This document shows positions 1,581-14,381 of a stretch of DNA of 18,412 nucleotides, in pieces. The translations under genes were made by a program, and so were the position numbers. Where the stretch lies: NCBI GenBank assembly GCA_041498975.1, contig JBGQJI010000037.1:1-18412 (forward strand). The letters are read 5' to 3'. Source of the DNA: Candidatus Methylomirabilis sp. Its GTDB lineage: Bacteria; Methylomirabilota; Methylomirabilia; Methylomirabilales; Methylomirabilaceae. Within the stretch, counting starts at the first letter, position 1, and every line of letters starts with the position of its first letter. A model generated the notes under the pieces. That model did no database searches and was not told where the DNA came from. It saw only the letters and a program-made list of their open reading frames with translations.

Positions 1581-1802
1581 AAACAACTCCTCTCTCTCGA
1601 AGATACATATTGAAACCGATGCGGTATTCGAACGGTGGTGATGCGATTCTACTCCTATCGCATCAATGAAGGCAAGACGCTTCGAGGATGCTTCGGAAGG
1701 CATCTTCATCGAGAAGCTGCGCGCCGCTGGGCAACTCGCCCATCCTCTCTCACCCATCGCTCTTTTCAAGTCATTCTTCACCTCCCTCAGTATCCCCGCG
1801 CC

Positions 1803-1849
1803 TTGACATTCACGGGTCAGCAAGGTATCCTTACAACAAGGAGGTAAGG
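1803..1849 (+). promoter_or_regulatory. Sigma-70 promoter and probable operator of the TA operon
   Basis: TTGACA (1803-1808), 17 bp spacer, TATCCT (1826-1831). Inverted repeats AAGG-TAT-CCTT and CCTTAC...GTAAGG (1829-1849) overlap the -10 and RBS. Confidence 0.7.
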
Positions 1850-1852
1850 AAG

Positions 1853-2092
1853 ATGCTGGCCAAGAAGACCTCGAAGAACCAGATCACGCTGCCCAAGAAG
1901 GTAGTGGAGGCGCTGCCACCAACCGAGTACTTTGACGTCACCGTCCGGGAGGAGGAGGTGGTGTTGAGACCCGTGGCGATGACCGCGCCCGGCGAGCGGC
2001 TCCGCGAAGTCCGAGAGAAAATCCGGCGGCTCGGCCTGACGGAGGCAGATCTGACCGCTGCCATCCGCTGGGCCCGGGGCAAGCGGAGGTGA
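1853..2092 (+). CDS. AbrB/MazE/SpoVT-family antitoxin (79 aa)
   Basis: MLAKKTSKNQITLPKKVVEAL...YFDV...VVLRP swapped-hairpin pattern. RBS upstream of the ATG at 1853. GTGA overlap with the PIN gene. Confidence 0.88.
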   Translation: MLAKKTSKNQITLPKKVVEALPPTEYFDVTVREEEVVLRPVAMTAPGERLREVREKIRRLGLTEADLTAAIRWARGKRR

Positions 2093-2496
2093 GCCGGGCC
2101 GTCCTCGACACGAACGTCATCCTGTCGGCGCTCCTGTTTGGCGGCCGCACGGGCGGCTTGGTCAGTGCGTGGCAGACGGGGCGATTCCAGCTCCTTCTCC
2201 CCCGAGCGATCCTCGAGGAACTCCTCCGCGTCCTGGCCTATCCGAAGTTCCAATTGACCGAGGGGGAGATTCGTGGGCTCATTGAAGAGGAGCTGGTCCC
2301 GTTTGCAGAAACCGTGATCGTCCGGCGCCAGCTTGCCGTTCGGCTTCGCGATCCGGACGATCTCGCTGTGGTAGCCTGTGCGCTGACAGGTCGCGCTAGG
2401 TATCTGGTCACTGGAGACGCCGATCTCCTCAGCCTGGAGCGCATTCGGCGGGTGGAGGTGATCCGCCCTGCGGAATTCATTGGCCACCTCGGCTAA
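2089..2496 (+). CDS. vapC: PIN-domain (VapC-like) toxin
   Basis: RAVLDTNVILSALL, ILEEL, RDPDD, YLVTGDADLL: acidic catalytic residues of the PIN_3 type. Coupled to the antitoxin gene. Confidence 0.9.
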   Translation: MSRAVLDTNVILSALLFGGRTGGLVSAWQTGRFQLLLPRAILEELLRVLAYPKFQLTEGEIRGLIEEELVPFAETVIVRRQLAVRLRDPDDLAVVACALTGRARYLVTGDADLLSLERIRRVEVIRPAEFIGHLG

Positions 2497-2515
2497 CGAG
2501 ACCCGCGGTTCAGGA

Positions 2516-2540
2516 AGGGCACAGCAAGCAGCGCCCCTAC
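2516..2540 (-). repeat. GTAG-type REP-like palindrome, copy 1
   Basis: Minus strand GTAGGGGCGCTGCTTGCTGTGCCCT, 24/25 identical to 10585-10609. Confidence 0.75.
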
Positions 2541-2622
2541 CATAAGGCATATGGGATTTCCTTCGCCTTGGGGCTAGTATATAATCTTACGGGCGACAAA
2601 CATCCAATGGTTGGAGAGACGC

Positions 2623-2901
2623 GTGAAGGTCAACTTTTATGCGACGCTGCGGCAGATCGTGGGAAGCAAGACGAAGGAGCTTCCTCTCCCCAAGGGAACG
2701 ACGGTTCGGCAGTTGATTGAGGGCGTTCTCTCCGATTATCCAGGTCTCAAGCCGATGCTGTTCGATGAAATGGGGAAACTTCACGGTCATGTTCATGTGT
2801 TTATCAACGGACGGGATGCTCCCTATCTGCATGGAGGTCTGGAAGCTACGCTGGCTCCCGACGACACCGTTGATATCTTTCCGGCCACGGGTGGCGGATG
2901 A
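2623..2901 (+). CDS. moaD: MoaD/ThiS/SAMP-like ubiquitin-fold sulfur carrier (92 aa)
   Basis: GTG at 2623 after GGAGAG. MKVNFYATLRQIVG...VFINGRD...VDIFPATGGG with C-terminal Gly-Gly. TATAAT at 2580-2585. Lies near aor. Confidence 0.9.
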   Translation: MKVNFYATLRQIVGSKTKELPLPKGTTVRQLIEGVLSDYPGLKPMLFDEMGKLHGHVHVFINGRDAPYLHGGLEATLAPDDTVDIFPATGGG

Positions 2902-3173
2902 GCGCCCCCGGCTCAGTAAAGGTCTATGATAGGGAAATCCGCGGCGTGCCGTTGTGGATGGTCCGAGAATACCTGGAGCAACTGGGCGGGCAGAGCAAGG
3001 TTGATGGGTGGCTGAAAGGCCCCGGCTGGAAGGCTCGTCTGACACCACTAGACGATTACCGAATCGGGTCGCTATGTGTCGGCCAGGTGCGACTGGAATT
3101 GCAAGGAGATGCCAAAGCCGTTGCAGAGGTGAGAGACGCCCTGGAGAAGAGGCTCCTTCGGGCAGGAGGCTAA
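2898..3173 (+). CDS. DUF1952-like (MoaD-related C-terminal domain) protein
   Basis: REIRGVPLWMVREYLEQLGG...GPGWKARL...KRLLRAGG. ATGA overlap with moaD. The pattern matches the Thermus/haloarchaeal DUF1952 family as I recall it. Confidence 0.72.
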   Translation: MSAPGSVKVYDREIRGVPLWMVREYLEQLGGQSKVDGWLKGPGWKARLTPLDDYRIGSLCVGQVRLELQGDAKAVAEVRDALEKRLLRAGG

Positions 3174-3186
3174 GGTTTGGAGGGAT

Positions 3187-3259
3187 CCCTCTCATCCTCG
3201 CCTTCTCCCCGTGATCGGGGAGAAGGGATGAATAGCGACTCCTCACCGGGGAAAAGGGA
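3187..3259 (+). repeat. CCCTCTC...CCTTCTCCCC-loop-GGGGAGAAGG palindromic intergenic repeat, possibly a bidirectional terminator
   Basis: CCTTCTCCCCG-TGAT-CGGGGAGAAGG hairpin between convergent genes, followed by a degenerate second half. Related copies at 6650-6686 and 6826-6868. Confidence 0.65.
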
Positions 3260-3278
3260 AAGAAAAGGTACCGTTCGC

Positions 3279-5093
3279 CTACGGGATCTGCAGGGCTTTC
3301 AGCTTTGCCTCGGGCACCACGCCGTTGACCCAGCCGCGCGCCTTGTAATACTCCTCCAGCATCTGTGGAAGCTCGCAGACATGCCCCTTCGAGCCTCCCA
3401 GGGTGGACGGTTCCTTGAGGAACCGCTCCGGTAGGTAGTCGCTGCCCTCGCGGAACCCGATCAGGTTGTTGTAGTAGCGCTCCAGGTTGTAGATCCGCTC
3501 GCCTGCCTTCAGGACATCATCGACCGTGAAGGGGACGCCGACCATGATGGAATACTGCTGGGCGTACTCCTCCGCGCCCTCGGCGAACGCGCTGAACTTG
3601 CAGAGGTCCAGGCTGTCGGAGAAGGCGTGCAGATCCTGCAACAGCTTCATCAGCTCGCCCTTACCCTTCCAGGCCAGCGGGTCGCTCTTGAGCGGGATCA
3701 GGCCGAGCTCGCTGGCGGGGGAGTAGCCGCGCAGGTGACAGGCGCCCCGGTTGCTCGTGGCGTAGCCAAGGCCCATGCCCTTCAGGCCGCGCGGGTCGTA
3801 CGCGGGCATGGACTGGCCCTTGACCGTCATGGAGATCTCGGGGTGGCCGAAGTGCTTAGCGAGCCGCTCCGCCCCCTCGGCCAGCATGCTGCCGATTCCC
3901 TCGCGGAAGGCGGTCCTGCGAACAGCCTCAACCATGCCCGGAACATCGCCCCAGCGCAGGCCGCCGGTGTTGGTGTAGCCCTTCTCCGTGGCTTCCATGT
4001 ACACGGAGAGGACGTTTCCCATCTCGATGGCATCGACGCCATAGTCATTGCACATGTCAATCAGCTTGGCGATTCCGCCAATGTCATCGTTGTCACAGTT
4101 CGAGCCGAAGGCCCAGGCAGGTTCGTACTCCACACTCTCCATCCGCAAGCCTGCGTACGGCCCCTCCTTGATCTCGACCTCCTTCTTGCAGGCGACCGGG
4201 CAGGCGTGGCAGGTAGGGTCATCCACCAGGATGTGCTCTTTGACGTACTCGCCGCTGATCCGCTCGCCTCTCCCACCGAACGATGCGAACTGGCTGTTGC
4301 GGGTGGGCAGGGCGCCGATGCTGTCGTTGATGTTCATGAGCACGTTGGTGCCGTAGACGGAGAGACCGCCCTTGCGCGGGCTAGTGATGTTCTTCTCGTC
4401 CATGATGGTAGCCAGGGCGCGCCGATGGGCCGGTTTCCAGGCCTGGAGATCCTTGGCCTTGGGCATCCGCTTCTCGGACTTGACGACCACGGCCTTCAGG
4501 TGTTTTGCGCCGCCGACGCACGCCGTGCCCCCACGCCCGCTGGCGCGGTCGTGTTCGTTGACCCAGCACGCGAAGCGCGAGAAGTGCTCGCCGGCCTGCC
4601 CGATAGCCATCACGCTCAGATCCTTCTCGCCATAGCGCTGCTTGAAGAAGCGCACGGTGTCGTGGACGCCCTTGCCCCATACCTCCCGGGCATCCAGGAT
4701 TTCCACCTGGTCGTCGTGGACGTAGGCATAGACCGGCTTCTCTGCCTTGCCCTTGAAGATCAGCCCGTCGAAGCCGGCCCAGCGAAGCCGTGCCGCCGAC
4801 CAGCCGCCGTGATGGCTGTCGGTGACCGTCCCGGTGAGCGGGGATTTGGTGACGATGGCCAGCCGCCCGCTCATGTTGGCCTCCGTGCCGGTCAGAGGCC
4901 CGTTCATGAAGCAAAGGATGTTGTCGGGCGACAATGGATCCACCTGAGGGCCGTTCTCGAAGACATAACGGACGCCGAGTCCGCGCGCCCCGATGTACTT
5001 CAGCGCCCATTCTTCGGGGATAGGTTTGTAAGCGACCTTGCCCGCGGTCAGGTCAACGTGGGCGATTCGATTAGCATACCCTCCGAGCGACAT
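3279..5093 (-). CDS. aor: Tungsten-dependent aldehyde:ferredoxin oxidoreductase (604 aa)
   Basis: ATG at 5093 after GGGAGGAGG. AFOR motifs: GYANRIAHVDL, KSPLTG, AGFDGL, GRGG, CHACPVAC ([4Fe-4S]), EYE, YDPRG, RGACH, DSLDLCKF. Confidence 0.95.
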   Translation of the reverse strand: MSLGGYANRIAHVDLTAGKVAYKPIPEEWALKYIGARGLGVRYVFENGPQVDPLSPDNILCFMNGPLTGTEANMSGRLAIVTKSPLTGTVTDSHHGGWSAARLRWAGFDGLIFKGKAEKPVYAYVHDDQVEILDAREVWGKGVHDTVRFFKQRYGEKDLSVMAIGQAGEHFSRFACWVNEHDRASGRGGTACVGGAKHLKAVVVKSEKRMPKAKDLQAWKPAHRRALATIMDEKNITSPRKGGLSVYGTNVLMNINDSIGALPTRNSQFASFGGRGERISGEYVKEHILVDDPTCHACPVACKKEVEIKEGPYAGLRMESVEYEPAWAFGSNCDNDDIGGIAKLIDMCNDYGVDAIEMGNVLSVYMEATEKGYTNTGGLRWGDVPGMVEAVRRTAFREGIGSMLAEGAERLAKHFGHPEISMTVKGQSMPAYDPRGLKGMGLGYATSNRGACHLRGYSPASELGLIPLKSDPLAWKGKGELMKLLQDLHAFSDSLDLCKFSAFAEGAEEYAQQYSIMVGVPFTVDDVLKAGERIYNLERYYNNLIGFREGSDYLPERFLKEPSTLGGSKGHVCELPQMLEEYYKARGWVNGVVPEAKLKALQIP

Positions 5094-5127
5094 CTTTGCC
5101 TCCTCCCGTACCACTGTATTGCCCTGA

Positions 5128-5175
5128 AGTTTACGGAACCGACATCGAGTTGTCAGATAGCTATTGCACCCTGAC
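5128..5175 (-). promoter_or_regulatory. Putative aor promoter with overlapping inverted repeat
   Basis: Minus strand CTGACA (5156-5151), 17 bp spacer, TAAACT (5133-5128). GTCAG-N14-CTGAC repeat at 5152-5175 overlaps the -35. Confidence 0.45.
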
Positions 5176-5204
5176 GCTGGCCTCCTTTTCTCAATTGCAC
5201 CAGG

Positions 5205-6083
5205 TTATCTCCCCGGAGGGAAGATCGCGATCTCGTCCTTCTCGTGAACCGGGACGTCGAATCCTCCCGCGTAGTTGAGGTCGCGACCGTTGAGCAGGAC
5301 TCGCCAGCCCGGGCGAGGGACATACGTGGGGGTCAGCTCGACCCAGTGAGCGTCGCTTCTCTCCTCGGAGTTCCAGACGCGCTCCAGTGCCTCTGCGCGG
5401 GCTTGCGGGTAATACTCGAAGAACTTGCCCAGCATATCGGCCATGCTCGCCCCGTCCCGGGTGCCCACCTGGATCTCCTGCGTGCCCAACAGGGGTCGCA
5501 GGCGACCATAGACCAAACAGCGAAGGGAGAAGCTCCCCTCCTCCAGCTTTCGCGCGATTCGGTACCCGAGCTGCATCTGGTTCAGTTGCACGGCCAGGTA
5601 CTTGCTCCAGGCAGCCATCGCCGCGGCAACCACTCCTGCCGGCAGGCCCGCCTCTGCCATGTAGCGAGCGAACGCCGCCTGCACCAGCCCGACGGAGCCC
5701 GTCACATATTCGGATGAGGTATGGATGTGGCGTGGGCCGTGTCCGGCGTGATACTTCCCGGCGCGAAACAGGTAGTGGGCGAACTCATCGCTGCTGTCCA
5801 GGCCCAGGGTGCGGGCGAGCCACACCGTGAAGAAGCGGCGACGCTCTTCCAGATGTGCCTCATCCACGCCCTTCTCCCAGCCCAAGATGGCCGCTGTTTC
5901 AGGCACCCGGCGCAGGTAGTCGTAGGTCTCCACCACCAGTTCCGGGCCGCGCCGAAAGAGAACTTCAACGGAACGCGAGGCTGCAACCTTGTCGTCGTCG
6001 CCCCACCCCACAAAGCTCAACATGCGTCGCCATTCGTCCTGGGGTTCCGGCGCCAGGTTGCGCAGCTCTAACCCGTCGTCCAT
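5205..6083 (-). CDS. Protoglobin (sensor globin) fused to a C-terminal MoaD/ThiS-like ubiquitin-fold domain (about 292 aa)
   Basis: N-terminus: MLSFVGW, ETYDYL (B10 Tyr), WL, RAGKYH (proximal His F8). C-terminus: LVYGRLRPLLG...VLLNGRD...DEIAIFPPGR, paralogous to the MoaD at 2623-2901. Probable ATG at 6083. Confidence 0.85.
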   Translation of the reverse strand: MDDGLELRNLAPEPQDEWRRMLSFVGWGDDDKVAASRSVEVLFRRGPELVVETYDYLRRVPETAAILGWEKGVDEAHLEERRRFFTVWLARTLGLDSSDEFAHYLFRAGKYHAGHGPRHIHTSSEYVTGSVGLVQAAFARYMAEAGLPAGVVAAAMAAWSKYLAVQLNQMQLGYRIARKLEEGSFSLRCLVYGRLRPLLGTQEIQVGTRDGASMADMLGKFFEYYPQARAEALERVWNSEERSDAHWVELTPTYVPRPGWRVLLNGRDLNYAGGFDVPVHEKDEIAIFPPGR

Positions 6084-6116
6084 TGTTCTCTCGTGTTTTC
6101 TCTGGAGCAGGTGTGG

Positions 6117-6164
6117 TCGCAAATCGGTGCGAGCATTGTACTTCTCGTCCGGCAGGGAAAGCAA
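6117..6164 (-). promoter_or_regulatory. Putative promoter of the globin-Ubl gene with downstream palindrome
   Basis: TTGCTT (6164-6159), 18 bp spacer, TACAAT (6140-6135). TCGCA-N6-TGCGA palindrome at 6117-6132. Confidence 0.45.
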
Positions 6165-6170
6165 CTGGTT

Positions 6171-6617
6171 TCAGCGGGCGAGGACCAGCCGATCGAGGCA
6201 GCTATTCCATCCCTTGTCGTGGTCGTCGCGCGCTTTCTCGGTCGGGAAGAGTTCGTGCGTGACGACGACTTCGGTGGAATTCCCCCGATCGCGAAATTCG
6301 ACCATCACGAGTGTTTCTCCGAGTTCGGGCTCCGACTCCCAACGCCACGTGTACACGAGCTTTCCCGGGGGACGAACTTCGCGGTACGTTCCGGAAAGGT
6401 AGAACACTTCCCCGTTCGGAAGCTTCCTCATCCCGAGGCGGTATTTTCCGCCTACCCGCAGGTCCAGTTCGGCGGTCGGCGTCGCATACCCAACGGGGCC
6501 CCACCACTTCTTCAGCTCTTCCGCGTCGGTCCATGCCCGGAAGACTTTTTCGCGCGGCGCCGCGAAGGTCCGCATGATGCGGAGCGTGTTCGCTGCGCTC
6601 GGATTCGGCTTGACCAT
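6171..6617 (-). CDS. SRPBCC/AHSA1-like (START-fold) domain protein (148 aa)
   Basis: ATG at 6617 after GAGGAGG. LRIMRTFAAPREKVFRAWTD...WWGP, DLRVGGKY, GTYREV.PP.KLVYTW, GWNSCLDRL. Confidence 0.92.
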   Translation of the reverse strand: MVKPNPSAANTLRIMRTFAAPREKVFRAWTDAEELKKWWGPVGYATPTAELDLRVGGKYRLGMRKLPNGEVFYLSGTYREVRPPGKLVYTWRWESEPELGETLVMVEFRDRGNSTEVVVTHELFPTEKARDDHDKGWNSCLDRLVLAR

Positions 6618-6649
6618 CGGCGTTCCTCCTCTGGCTTTGCTCCGGAAGT

Positions 6650-6686
6650 CCCCCTCACCTTCATCCTCTCCCCACTGGGGGAGAGG
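6650..6686 (+). repeat. CCCCTCACC...CCTCTCCCC-loop-GGGGAGAGG palindromic repeat
   Basis: CCCCCTCACCTTCATCCTCTCCCCACTGGGGGAGAGG, same family as 3187-3228. Confidence 0.65.
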
Positions 6687-6712
6687 AAATATGAGTTGAC
6701 TGTGACGCAGTT

Positions 6713-6826
6713 TCATTCCCATCTGCGCGGCGAAGGCGCATGAGGCATTGATCGGTTTAGATAGTGGGCGAGAGCGTCGCAATTCTCCTCCCAATGGCGC
6801 AGGTAGCGGGCGATGCGGTCGGCAGT
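6713..6826 (-). pseudogene. 3' remnant of an ArsR/SmtB-family regulator
   Basis: Minus-frame translation TADRIARYLRHWEENCDALAHYLNRS...* matches the C-terminal helix (WI.RYR.FWE..LDAL..YL) of ArsR regulators encoded upstream of SRPBCC genes. No HTH part or start codon lies upstream. Confidence 0.6.
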
Positions 6827-6868
6827 CCCCTGAGGGGAGAAGGGAAGATTACCGGGGGTGAGAGCGGG
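6826..6868 (-). repeat. Truncated copy of the CCCTTCTCCCC/GGGGAGA repeat
   Basis: Minus strand CCCGCTCTCACCCCCGGTAATCTTCCCTTCTCCCCTCAGGGGA. The right arm ends at the ArsR remnant. Confidence 0.5.
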
Positions 6869-6875
6869 ACGATGA

Positions 6876-6894
6876 ACCGAGGCAGCCCCTCGGT
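6876..6894 (-). terminator. Hairpin directly after the lipoprotein stop codon
   Basis: ACCGAGG-N5-CCTCGGT, 7-bp stem with only a weak U-tract. Confidence 0.35.
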
Positions 6895-6897
6895 GCC

Positions 6898-7401
6898 TTA
6901 TTTCGCGAGATCCTGAAACGTGGCCTTTGATTTCCAGTAGACCCCGCGCACGACAAAGATCTCATCAGGGCCTGCCGTGGAGGTCAGCCAGAGCTGTTTT
7001 CCCGCAAGATCACCGTACTGAGCCTTTACGGGAAAGGTCACCAGGAGCATGCCTTCGTTGAGCTGGGCCAGGACCGTTCCCGCAGCCGACTTCACCTCTT
7101 CTGGTCTCACGATCATCCTGGCCTTCAGGTCAGGGTCTCGACGTTCGGCCCAGCGAATGCCCTCGCCGTCGGTGTTCTGGAAGACGAACCGCTTCGGCTG
7201 AAGTTGGCCCGGCGAAAAGAGGGGAAGAATGAGCTCCAGGGTCCCATTGTCGAGATACGCCACAGCGCCCGTTGCGGCACTGGATTCATAGCCGGAGGGA
7301 CCCGAGAGAGGATAGGTATAGGTGACCTTCGCGGGAAGGATCGCCGTCCCGGAGCAGCCGGCGAGCCACACCGCAATTAGGATCCATGCCACGCGCCTCA
7401 T
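6898..7401 (-). CDS. Hypothetical lipoprotein (167 aa)
   Basis: MRRVAWILIAVWLAGC lipobox signal with GGAGG RBS. No family recognised. Confidence 0.8.
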   Translation of the reverse strand: MRRVAWILIAVWLAGCSGTAILPAKVTYTYPLSGPSGYESSAATGAVAYLDNGTLELILPLFSPGQLQPKRFVFQNTDGEGIRWAERRDPDLKARMIVRPEEVKSAAGTVLAQLNEGMLLVTFPVKAQYGDLAGKQLWLTSTAGPDEIFVVRGVYWKSKATFQDLAK

Positions 7402-11150: not shown

Positions 11151-12492
<1,342 letters not shown>

Positions 12493-12515
<23 letters not shown>

Positions 12516-14268
12516 CCTTGCTGGACCGGCTCTCGGGCCGACCCGCCAGTGGCTCAGTGTATTCGGCCAGTGGGAAGCTGACGGTGACCACCGTCCCTTT
12601 GCCGAGGCCTTCACTCTGCACCTCGATGGTGCCCCGATGCTGCTCCACGATGCTCTGGCAGACGGCGAGGCCCAGACCCGTCCCCTTTCCCACCTCCTTG
12701 GTGGTGAAGAAGGGGTCGAACACCCTCGCGAGATTCTCCGGCAAGATCCCGCTGCCGGTATCCGACACGGACACGTCGAGCCATTCTTGCCCGGGGGTCC
12801 GCCCCGTCGCTTCCCGCCGTCGGGTCGCGACAATCCGGACCTCCCCGCCACCCTCGATGGCATCCAGCGCATTTGTCAGAAGGTTCAGGAAGACCTGCTG
12901 AAGCATCTGGGCATCCGCCTGGACCATGCTCCCCTCTGGAAATGAAGCCACGACGATCTGCTGATTCGCAAGGCTGGCCTGTCGCTGCACGAAAGACACG
13001 GCATCCGCCACCACGATCGAGAGGTCCACCAGGCCGAAGGAGGGCTCGCGCTGCCGGGCGAAATCGAGCAGGCGGCGGACGATGGCGGCCGCGCGGTTCA
13101 CTTCCTCCTGGATCATGATGACATACTCCTGGAATTCGGCCAGGCCCGAGGGGCTTGCGACCTCCCCTGCCCCAGCACGACGCTGGAGGGCCTCGGCGAA
13201 GCCGGCCACCGAGGAGAGAGGATTGTTGAGCTCGTGCGCCAGGCCCGCCGCCAAACGGCCGAGAGAGGCCAACTTCTCCTGCCGCACCAGCAACTGCTGC
13301 GACTGCTTCAGCTCGTCGTAGGAGCGCCGCAGCTCCTCATACAGGCTGGCGTTCTCGAGGGCGATGGCCGCCTGGGTGGCCAGCGTCATGGCAAGGGCCT
13401 CATCCTCTCCATTGAACTCCTCGCCCCCTCGCTTCTCGGTCACGTAGAGGTTGCCGAGGACCTTACCCTTTGAGATGACGGGCACGCCGAGGAACGATTT
13501 CATCGGGGGGTGGTTGGGCGGAAAGCCGTGGGCTCTGGGATCCCTTGCCAGATCTTTCAGGCGCAGCAGCTTCGCCTCGCGCACGACAACTCCCAGGATC
13601 CCCTTCCCGACGGGCAGCGGACCGATGGCCCGCTTGGTCATCTCATCGATCCCTGCAGTGATGAACCGGCGGAGGCCGCCCTTCTCATCCAGGACGCCGA
13701 GGGCGGCATACTTCGCATTCACTAACTTGCAGGCCATGTTGGCGATCCTCTGCAGCACCGCCTCGAGGGAGAGCTTGGCAGTGAGGATCATCCCCGTCTT
13801 CACGAGCATCCGGAGCTGGCCCACTCCTCTCTTGCTGAAGTCTTCCCGTTCCTCCGCAATGACGAAGGCCACATGAGCCAATAGACGGTCGGCCACGGGC
13901 GAATAGAGATCAAGGGCCTTCGTCAGTCTCTGCATCTCCCCTCGATATCTCCTGAAGAGCGATCGCCTGAAGACGTCATGGAGCGTGAGGATGCCTTCCA
14001 TCGCGCGTTCAGGGGTCATGCCTTCCGCCACACCCTGCATCGCCATAGACCGGGCATGGTCCAGGCCGGCCTCGTGCTTCCCGCTTTCCAGAGCGGCCAC
14101 GCAGAAATCGTAGAGCGCGCTGAACTCGCTCCCGATCCCCTTCGAGCTGAGGCCCTTCAAGAAACCCTTCGCCCTCATCCGCTGGACCCACTCCCGCCGC
14201 AGCGCTTCTCGCTTCTCGCGAAAGTGCGCAACCAGTTCTTCCCGTAGCGTGTTACTCCGCCGCTCCAT
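12493..14268 (-). CDS. Cytoplasmic sensor histidine kinase: RsbRD_N-like domain, DosS-type GAF, HisKA, HATPase
   Basis: GAF motif HGFPPNHPPMKSFLGVP, H-box AHELNNPL, N-box NLLTNALDA, DTGSGI, FDPFFTTK, GTGLGL. No transmembrane segment seen. Alternative start at 14310. Confidence 0.92.
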
Positions 14269-14381
14269 CGCCGCACCGCGCTTCAACTTGAACCCGCCGC
14301 TGCGCCACATCGCGGCCGGTCATGGCCGGACCCCCGAGCATATCCCTTCTCTCATCTCCTGACGCCTTTCCAGAAGGCTGC

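Follow-up and report, generated by a model that had tools for sequence, protein, structure and literature searches.

A stretch of 18 412 nucleotides (nt) from a Candidatus Methylomirabilis sp. (contig JBGQJI010000037.1 of assembly GCA_041498975.1, termed the window below) carries four genes that form a conserved module: a probable tungsten enzyme of the AOR family, a MoaD-like protein, a DUF1952 protein and a fusion of a globin to a second, MoaD-derived beta-grasp domain. The contig (C37) belongs to a 2.68-Mb bin that is 85% complete. The reading that we favour, to which we give an even chance, is that the fusion is a heme accessory subunit that docks on the AOR beside a MoaD/DUF1952 maturation pair, the whole being a mobile module built around an AOR of the clade-83 type. 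The components are as follows, with lengths in amino acids (aa).

2623-2901, + strand: MoaD/SAMP1-like protein, 92 aa; Pfam ThiS, NCBIfam SAMP1; C-terminus FPATGGG
2898-3173, + strand: DUF1952 protein, 91 aa; Pfam DUF1952; C-terminus LLRAGG
3279-5093, - strand: AOR (WOR family large subunit), 604 aa; AFOR_N and AFOR_C
5205-6083, - strand: globin/beta-grasp fusion, 292 aa; Protoglobin and ThiS
5541..6083, - strand: globin domain of the fusion, residues 1-181; Pfam Protoglobin, Foldseek
5205..5534, - strand: MoaD-derived beta-grasp domain of the fusion, residues 184-292, with the stop codon

A sequence-only reading of the window had placed four genes at these positions, and Pfam, NCBIfam and Foldseek find each of them there. 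The arrangement that it described is also correct: the moaD-like gene (ending GGG) and the DUF1952-like gene (ending RAGG) converge on aor, which is preceded by the fusion of a protoglobin to a ubiquitin-like protein (Ubl). The fusion gene shares the strand of aor and is 111 nt upstream of it, and the start of the DUF1952 gene overlaps the stop codon of the MoaD gene by 4 nt (ATGA). The MoaD-like gene has a GTG start with the ribosome-binding site GGAGAG ahead of it, while aor has an ATG start preceded by the site GGGAGGAGG. A scan of positions 2400-7000 for promoters and terminators was uninformative, with two promoter-like sites where 0.9 are expected and seven terminator-like sites where 3.6 are expected. 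No gene for an E1 activating enzyme, MoaE or a ferredoxin lies within the window, as had been noted; in the genome outside it there are three ThiF-family genes, one MoaD-MoaE pair and ten ThiS-family matches. The description of the locus as having 'three ubiquitin-like or Gly-Gly modules' holds in part. There are two Gly-Gly tails and two beta-grasp domains, but the fusion ends in FPPGR and the modelled DUF1952 protein does not have a ubiquitin-like fold.

Whether the genes co-occur across genomes had been set beforehand as the test that could refute the system, and they do. Two sets of neighbourhoods of the fusion gene were collected, one of 18 loci with 6-kb flanks and one of 30 loci with 1.5-kb flanks, some genomes being present in both. 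In the first set, 11 of the 18 loci have AOR as the next gene downstream of the fusion, with both on one strand, and six have no AOR in the flanks; in locus L003 it lies 4 kb from the fusion. In the second set AOR is found in 17 of the 30 loci and DUF1952 in 14. The four genes are found in at least four orders (Glb, globin fusion; DUF, DUF1952):

A: Glb>AOR> <DUF<MoaD, the order in the window
B: MoaD>DUF>Glb> <AOR
C: AOR> <DUF<MoaD Glb>
D: MoaD>DUF> <Glb<AOR

The association is also seen at the level of whole genomes. Our sample comprised 301 genomes from the class of G041 (the genome of locus L004), of which 39 have a full-length fusion. An orthologue of the window's AOR, taken at a threshold of at least 59% identity (paralogues are at 45% or below), is present in 36 of these 39 and in 38 of the 262 genomes that lack the fusion. 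DUF1952 is found in at least 29 of the 39, compared with 13 of the 262. As the sampled genomes are related, these contrasts overstate the number of independent observations. We then typed 70 AOR-orthologue loci using profiles built here, leaving out four partial orthologues from genomes without the fusion, and four kinds of cluster can be distinguished:

DUF1952: 23/36 loci in fusion-bearing genomes, 9/34 in genomes without the fusion
Second, divergent MoaD in the DUF1952 slot: 0/36 in fusion-bearing genomes, 10/34 in genomes without the fusion
MoaD only: 2/36 in fusion-bearing genomes, 7/34 in genomes without the fusion
Bare: 11/36 in fusion-bearing genomes, 8/34 in genomes without the fusion

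The loci with a second MoaD (L059, L065, L066, L067, L075, L078-L081 and L083) are from Chloroflexota without the fusion. This second MoaD has no Gly-Gly end, having instead a C-terminal extension of 10-25 residues (for example LFPKTG followed by 15 residues), and its position recalls the aorD/aorE genes of A. aromaticum (PMC6365974). In one of these loci (L059:800-2630) the intact orthologue has, immediately upstream of it, a second AOR copy that is split into four fragments in different frames and looks like a decayed tandem duplicate. Two further neighbourhoods hint at a context of aldehyde and alcohol redox chemistry. A 4Fe-4S ferredoxin gene and a gene of the Prismane/CO-dehydrogenase family lie between fusion and AOR at L003:7045-9694, and at L005:4581-5975 an iron-type alcohol dehydrogenase gene is directly upstream of the fusion, with that of a NiFe-hydrogenase large subunit further upstream.

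The fusion has the same length (292 aa) as its homologues, and was modelled by AlphaFold2 with pLDDT 94.0 and pTM 0.90. The globin domain matches Pfam Protoglobin (1.6e-12; 48.1 bits for a cut-off of 25), and in Foldseek residues 1-181 find 8H17, the M. acetivorans protoglobin 2VEB and AfGcHK (5OHE) with E values of about 1e-5. His112 aligns with the RVHVRIG sequence of AfGcHK and Tyr54 with its FYD; both are invariant in 54 sequences, and we take them to be the proximal histidine (F8) and the distal B10 tyrosine, respectively. The last 109 residues find SAMP1, MoaD and 1V8C (2L52, 4HRO, 3PO0 and 1V8C), and score slightly below the cut-off for ThiS (5.3e-4; 20.9 bits for a cut-off of 22.5). 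The domain is 19% identical to the neighbouring MoaD (BLASTP E 5e-05), and the two have the motifs YxxLR, NGRD and IFP in common. There is no transmitter domain (MCP, GGDEF, kinase or the like) in the fusion; the globin is followed by the ThiS-type beta-grasp domain only. The C-terminus is FPPGR in 119 of the 120 best homologues, the remaining one being truncated, and among the matches listed the PGR end is retained in 11 of 14 representatives of the fusion family, down to 37% identity. Judged from its sequence, the fused domain is thus a degenerate MoaD and not a conjugatable Ubl. The earlier suggestion that the globin fusion acts in SAMP-like conjugation or sulfur carriage is not supported, because this invariant Pro-Pro-Gly-Arg end has no Gly-Gly. 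The family is large, with at least 807 clusters at 90% identity and about seven full-length clusters at 50%. Its members appear in databases as 'protoglobin domain-containing' or 'MoaD/ThiS family' proteins, and in Atlas clusters as 'Protoglobin/ThiS'; those that are named are nearly all from Chloroflexota.

The complex of AOR with the whole fusion was predicted from our own alignments, together with three controls. This gave an ipSAE of 0.69 (runs 0.80, 0.66 and 0.69) against 0.01 for the best control. On a calibration that is rough here, where our own alignments were used, 116 of 157 solved complexes reached this mark, as did two of 215 mismatched pairs. At least 84% of contacts are the same between runs, with partner pLDDT of 87 or above. 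None of the AOR entries in our copy of the PDB contains a MoaD-like chain, and the result is therefore unlikely to stem from a remembered complex. On the fusion the interface is formed by residues 192-196, 258-271 and 286-291, that is, by the motifs common to the neighbouring MoaD and by the FPPG tail; on the AOR it comprises residues 234-260, 282, 463-474 and 566-569 of domains 2 and 3. The beta-grasp domain and tail of the fusion are thus predicted to dock directly on the AOR, in place of the earlier proposal that the fusion acts on a sulfur-transfer enzyme.

The AOR side of this interface is better conserved where the fusion is present. Identity to the window's enzyme is 0.788 at interface positions in fusion-bearing genomes and 0.660 in the others, compared with 0.713 and 0.672 outside the interface, and in raw counts Asn235 is found in 34 of 35 fusion-bearing AOR rows and in 11 of 34 others. 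We considered this covariation as support for the fusion and rejected it; placed on the tree it tracks the DUF1952-type clusters and is not significant. Conservation of the interface is compatible with use of the site by a MoaD carrier too, and is not evidence specific to the fusion.

The AOR itself is a clear member of its family (AFOR_N 4.5e-71, AFOR_C 2.4e-128). Cys295, Cys298, Cys302 and Cys498 are invariant across 13 orthologues, forming a CxxCxxxC motif plus a distal cysteine in DxxxLC; by homology to Cys288/291/295/494 of the P. furiosus enzyme we take these to be the ligands of a [4Fe-4S] cluster. Tungsten-dependent enzymes of known structure (9Q1T and 1AOR) are among its relatives. 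The best of these is 9Q1T, Haloferax volcanii WOR83 (9.4e-217, 724.9 bits), followed by 9MQX (7.1e-145) and 1AOR (3.7e-139), the other solved AORs being at 487 bits or below. Because the best solved relative is WOR83, the enzyme probably belongs to clade 83, a placement made from the best hit and not from the published 92-clade tree. No gene for a Fer4 or FAD subunit (WorS/WorN) lies beside aor in the window, leaving a single large subunit. Clade 83, of Class I, consists of single-subunit enzymes from aerobic haloarchaea, Thermus, Chloroflexota and Firmicutes, and is described as a group of O2-resistant, aerobe-associated tungsten enzymes (PMC9424855, PMC13328260). After 48 h of exposure to air, the clade's sole characterised member, BmWOR of Brevibacillus massiliensis, still shows 50% activity, and to work in air it needs its ferredoxin (PMC9424855). 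The sequence-only reading had set out from the O2 sensitivity of most AORs; with WOR83 as the best solved relative, that premise probably does not apply to this one. The genome has three further AOR paralogues that score 339-394 bits on the orthologue profile. These were considered as members of the module and rejected, as they are distant and have no MoaD1-type gene beside them.

The two small genes on the opposite strand make up a recognizable pair. The MoaD-like protein matches Pfam ThiS (4.2e-13, 50.1 bits) and NCBIfam SAMP1 (73.5 bits for a cut-off of 60), and has a free C-terminal Gly-Gly (it ends GGG). Its best match in the PDB is the N-terminal domain of 1V8C (residues 2-87, 1.1e-14). 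In AOR-linked MoaD orthologues the motif FP[PA]VGGG is conserved, with FPxVAGG in a few; some extend one to four residues past the motif and some much further. The DUF1952 protein (29.3 bits for a Pfam cut-off of 22) matches residues 89-151 of the same 1V8C structure (phmmer 2.9e-07; Foldseek 8.8e-07), so that the two genes are a split form of the MoaD-DUF1952 protein of Thermus thermophilus. In two Chloroflexota loci (L096:2377-2919 and L111:3405-3941) MoaD and DUF1952 are in one frame without a stop codon, like Thermus 1V8C; the Gly-Gly-Gly of MoaD is thereby buried, and R[AG]GG of DUF1952 is the only free end. An AlphaFold2 model of the window's DUF1952 protein (pLDDT 83.7) has a strand, a helix, a short strand, two long strands and a long helix. 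Foldseek with this model gives only 1V8C below an E value of 0.01 and no beta-grasp protein there, and the modelled fold is not ubiquitin-like despite the Gly-Gly tail. That tail is well conserved. Gly-Gly ends 28 of 30 homologues, 27 of them as LLRAGG or LIRAGG, the two others being truncated, and R[AG]GG ends four of four copies read from related loci. In a control with the Pfam family, matches occur only in Thermus, above the cut-off, and in Haloferax, at a looser E value, both of which are hosts of clade 83 enzymes. We read the MoaD-like and DUF1952 proteins as a maturation pair of the known AOR-adjacent MoaD kind.

How did the module come to be in this genome? The fusion is present in two of 20 genomes of the window's genus and in none of 21 from the order's other genera; a close relative's contig, titled Candidatus Methylomirabilis, has the same four genes. 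In a quick maximum-likelihood tree of 70 AORs, from which the typed locus L094 was excluded, the window's AOR nests within the rows of the Chloroflexota class with an SH-like approximate likelihood-ratio test (SH-aLRT) value of 96. Relatives of a peptidase encoded at the window's far end occur at 53-76% identity in six of seven genera of the order, and the contig therefore fits its bin. The module in this Methylomirabilis-type bin thus looks to have been acquired from Chloroflexota, and the four genes seem to have moved as a unit, a mobility that Iyer et al. proposed earlier for MoaD-AOR clusters (PMC1779556).

In the reading that we favour, the canonical MoaD-like protein, with DUF1952, would be activated by an E1 encoded elsewhere, and the pair would serve sulfur transfer or tungstopterin maturation for the window's AOR. 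The likeliest activator of the Gly-Gly proteins is found on contig C87 (G000, L125:1225-2403, + strand), where a 393-aa open frame has a domain of the ThiS/MoaD type and, after it, the best ThiF/E1 match in the genome; this is either a fused Ubl-E1 or two genes sharing one frame. The globin fusion would be a heme-carrying accessory subunit in which a retired MoaD domain acts as the module that docks on AOR, probably at the same site as the MoaD carrier. What the heme binds (O2, NO or CO), or its redox state, would in turn modulate the AOR, possibly by blocking or permitting maturation or substrate access, or by protecting the enzyme while oxygen is present. An oxygen-related role is attractive because the clade to which the AOR probably belongs is oxygen tolerant and Methylomirabilis-type bacteria produce internal O2. 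A stronger version, which we hold as possible but tentative, would make the fusion a new kind of globin-coupled sensor. The retired MoaD would plug tail-first into the MoaD site of the AOR, with O2 or NO at the heme deciding on maturation, sulfuration, access or shielding. It would follow that the target of AOR-linked MoaD/WorX proteins is the enzyme itself and not just free molybdopterin (MPT) synthase, which would explain the specificity between cognate Ubl and apoenzyme in Thermococcus. The DUF1952 protein with its ubiquitin-like LLRAGG tail would by the same token be a second E1-activated carrier.

Several other explanations have to be weighed against these. The fusion might be a chaperone that binds apo-AOR as MoaD does and keeps it open for insertion of tungstopterin, the globin being a scaffold or a sensor that does not depend on heme. 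Its docking motifs are indeed those of the adjacent MoaD, its linkage to the MoaD-DUF1952 pair is tight (order B has all three small genes in a row on one strand), and the enzyme purified from A. aromaticum did not contain the MoaD-like neighbours of AOR as subunits (PMC6365974). The invariance of His112 and Tyr54 favours heme, however, and half of the genomes with an AOR orthologue mature their enzyme without a fusion; we think this explanation rather unlikely. In another, the heme domain is the electron acceptor of the AOR and the beta-grasp domain docks it, so that electrons from aldehydes pass to O2 or NO bound at the heme and scavenge them locally, whether in place of ferredoxin or in addition to it. 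O2 or NO is encountered by the host lineage and by many Chloroflexota, there is no ferredoxin gene in the window or in most clusters, and the L003 neighbourhood places ferredoxin and Prismane/CO-dehydrogenase genes between fusion and AOR. The need of BmWOR for its ferredoxin to work in air (PMC9424855) points the same way. Against this, the predicted interface involves the beta-grasp domain only, and the nearest globins are sensor domains that are not linked to reductases. We think a role as redox partner unlikely.

The sequence-only reading had entertained a SAMP-like system, in which the fused Ubl works with the two Gly-Gly proteins in conjugation or sulfur relay and gas sensing at the heme gates the fusion's own thiocarboxylation or conjugation. 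The beta-grasp fold of the fusion is SAMP1/MoaD-like, two neighbouring proteins have Gly-Gly ends, E1 enzymes are encoded in the genome, and SAMP1-type MoaDs conjugate in archaea (PMC4443979). Yet the Gly-Arg end of the fusion homologues is all but universal, and activation would need removal of the terminal arginine, leaving Pro-Gly rather than Gly-Gly; no gene for a JAMM or other such peptidase was seen in the window or in the Pfam-scanned neighbours of seven of the 18 first loci. The complex model, moreover, sets the tail of the fusion against the AOR. We regard such a relay as very unlikely. Least credible of all, and already disfavoured, is that the fusion is an independent heme sensor that stands near AOR genes by chance. 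Loci without partner genes close by would fit this, as would the other contexts of the fusion, which include DnaA, PNPase, Rex and an iron alcohol dehydrogenase. It is opposed by a linkage that survives at least four gene orders, by the uneven distribution of the AOR orthologue between genomes with and without the fusion, by the apparent co-transfer of the genes into another phylum and by a complex prediction that passes its controls.

Of the docking of a heme subunit on the AOR, the reading that we prefer, it must also be said that a number of observations weigh against it. In 11 of the 30 loci the 1.5-kb flanks of the fusion contain no partner gene, and in 18 of 36 genomes the fusion and the AOR orthologue are not within 5 kb of each other, some of them at contig ends. 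The fusion is dispensable, since about half of the genomes with the AOR orthologue lack it (38 compared with 36 that have it). The interface signature of Asn235, Ile255 and Leu463 follows the DUF1952-type clusters whether the fusion is there or not; on the tree there are only three changes at Asn235, and a test of independent pairs is not significant (median p 0.5 to 1). No globin residues are listed in the predicted interface, and ipSAE expresses the confidence of a model rather than a measurement. That the fusion carries heme is inferred from two aligned residues only. Longer fused forms such as globin-Ubl-AOR were not found among the fusion's homologues, which is a weak point against the reading.

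Some other genes of the window adjoin the module or lie further away. An AHSA1/SRPBCC gene (6171-6794, - strand) is on the same strand as the globin fusion and 87 nt upstream of it, and AHSA1 is matched twice in the sister locus L002, once by a copy truncated at the contig end and once over the C-terminal half only. We considered this gene as a further member and rejected it; it occurs in the two Methylomirabilis-type loci only and, being missing from the Chloroflexota loci, is not counted as a gene of the module. On the other side, at 1688-2496 (+ strand), an AbrB/MazE-like antitoxin open reading frame (weak, 16.4 bits) overlaps a PIN-domain toxin gene (PIN_3, 5.1e-19) by 4 nt. This is likely to be a VapBC-type pair adjoining the module, and a relative of the PIN protein is present in L002 too. 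Beyond it (459-1823, - strand) is a gene for a 454-aa protein with the N-terminal domain of type I restriction R subunits (HSDR_N) and DUF5655. The G+C content around 459-1823 is 0.53-0.54, compared with 0.60-0.63 in the module, and this lower stretch may mark the border of an acquired island. At 11151-14310 (- strand), overlapping open-reading-frame calls encode a histidine kinase with a GAF domain and a sigma-54 activator of the NtrC type, and we saw no tie to the module.

Among known systems, the clusters of AOR with MoaD come close to the module. MoaD genes are strictly adjacent to AOR, a MoaD-AOR fusion is present in Azoarcus (PMC1779556), and the link is thought to serve synthesis of tungstopterin (PMC1779556; PMC2948915). 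The ThiS-like neighbour of AOR is called WorX in the naming of the Adams laboratory, its 'exact function unknown' (PMC9424855, PMC13328260). In T. kodakarensis, deletion of the AOR-adjacent MoaD (TK1065/UblC) lowered AOR to about 54% and abolished FOR in pyruvate medium; specificity between cognate Ubl and apoenzyme was raised there, as was the possibility that sulfur is inserted after the precursor binds the enzyme (PMC11323500). As in the window, the MoaD/WorX of such clusters has a Gly-Gly end and adjoins a tungsten AOR outside the main operon of the molybdenum cofactor, and the clusters are sporadic, mobile and presumed to act in tungstopterin supply (PMC1779556, PMC6365974, PMC11323500, PMC13328260). 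The window differs in adding DUF1952 and a globin fused to a second, degenerate MoaD, and we found no mention of a globin or of DUF1952 in the available portions of these four papers. The literature searched yielded no paper on DUF1952. A crystal structure of the fused form of these MoaD/WorX and DUF1952 helpers has existed since 2004. That structure, Thermus thermophilus HB8 1V8C, a 'MoaD related protein', is matched in both its MoaD and DUF1952 parts. In the window, by contrast, these parts are split into overlapping genes, and both Gly-Gly ends are therefore free. Docking of a MoaD-type domain on AOR, if true, would bear on the matching of individual Ubls to individual tungsten enzymes, a question raised in Thermococcus.

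The AOR resembles those of clade 83 (BmWOR and H. volcanii WOR83, 9Q1T) in consisting of one large subunit and having no polyferredoxin gene next to it; the available text on BmWOR describes no globin partner for it (PMC9424855). The module may bear both on the maturation of AORs and on the oxygen tolerance of clade 83. Tungsten AORs are sought as biocatalysts for the conversion of acids to aldehydes, and most die in air. A functional analogy for the fusion may be drawn with Shethna protein II (FeSII), a small protein with a redox cofactor that docks on the oxygen-sensitive nitrogenase when oxygen appears, giving conformational protection; the analogy serves as a hypothesis only, as the two have no relation in sequence or fold. 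The components are of known kinds. As far as our searches of the literature reach, there is no description of their combination, of a MoaD domain with a PPGR tail or of a DUF1952 protein with a Gly-Gly tail. Nothing was found there that links a globin to AOR or MoaD, in agreement with the view of the sequence-only reading that no such system had been characterised.

The closest relatives of the fusion are the globin-coupled sensors and protoglobin (AfGcHK 5OHE, HemAT 1OR4, M. acetivorans 2VEB and T. elongatus 8H17), which have the same globin fold (Foldseek TM-score to target 0.74-0.86). Like these sensors the fusion has an N-terminal sensor domain followed by a C-terminal domain, with aligned histidine and tyrosine in the heme pocket. 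The C-terminal domain of the fusion is not a kinase, cyclase or MCP but a MoaD-type beta-grasp domain without an enzymatic motif, and one that is predicted to bind another enzyme. If confirmed, this would connect gas sensing with a tungsten enzyme for the first time in the literature searched.

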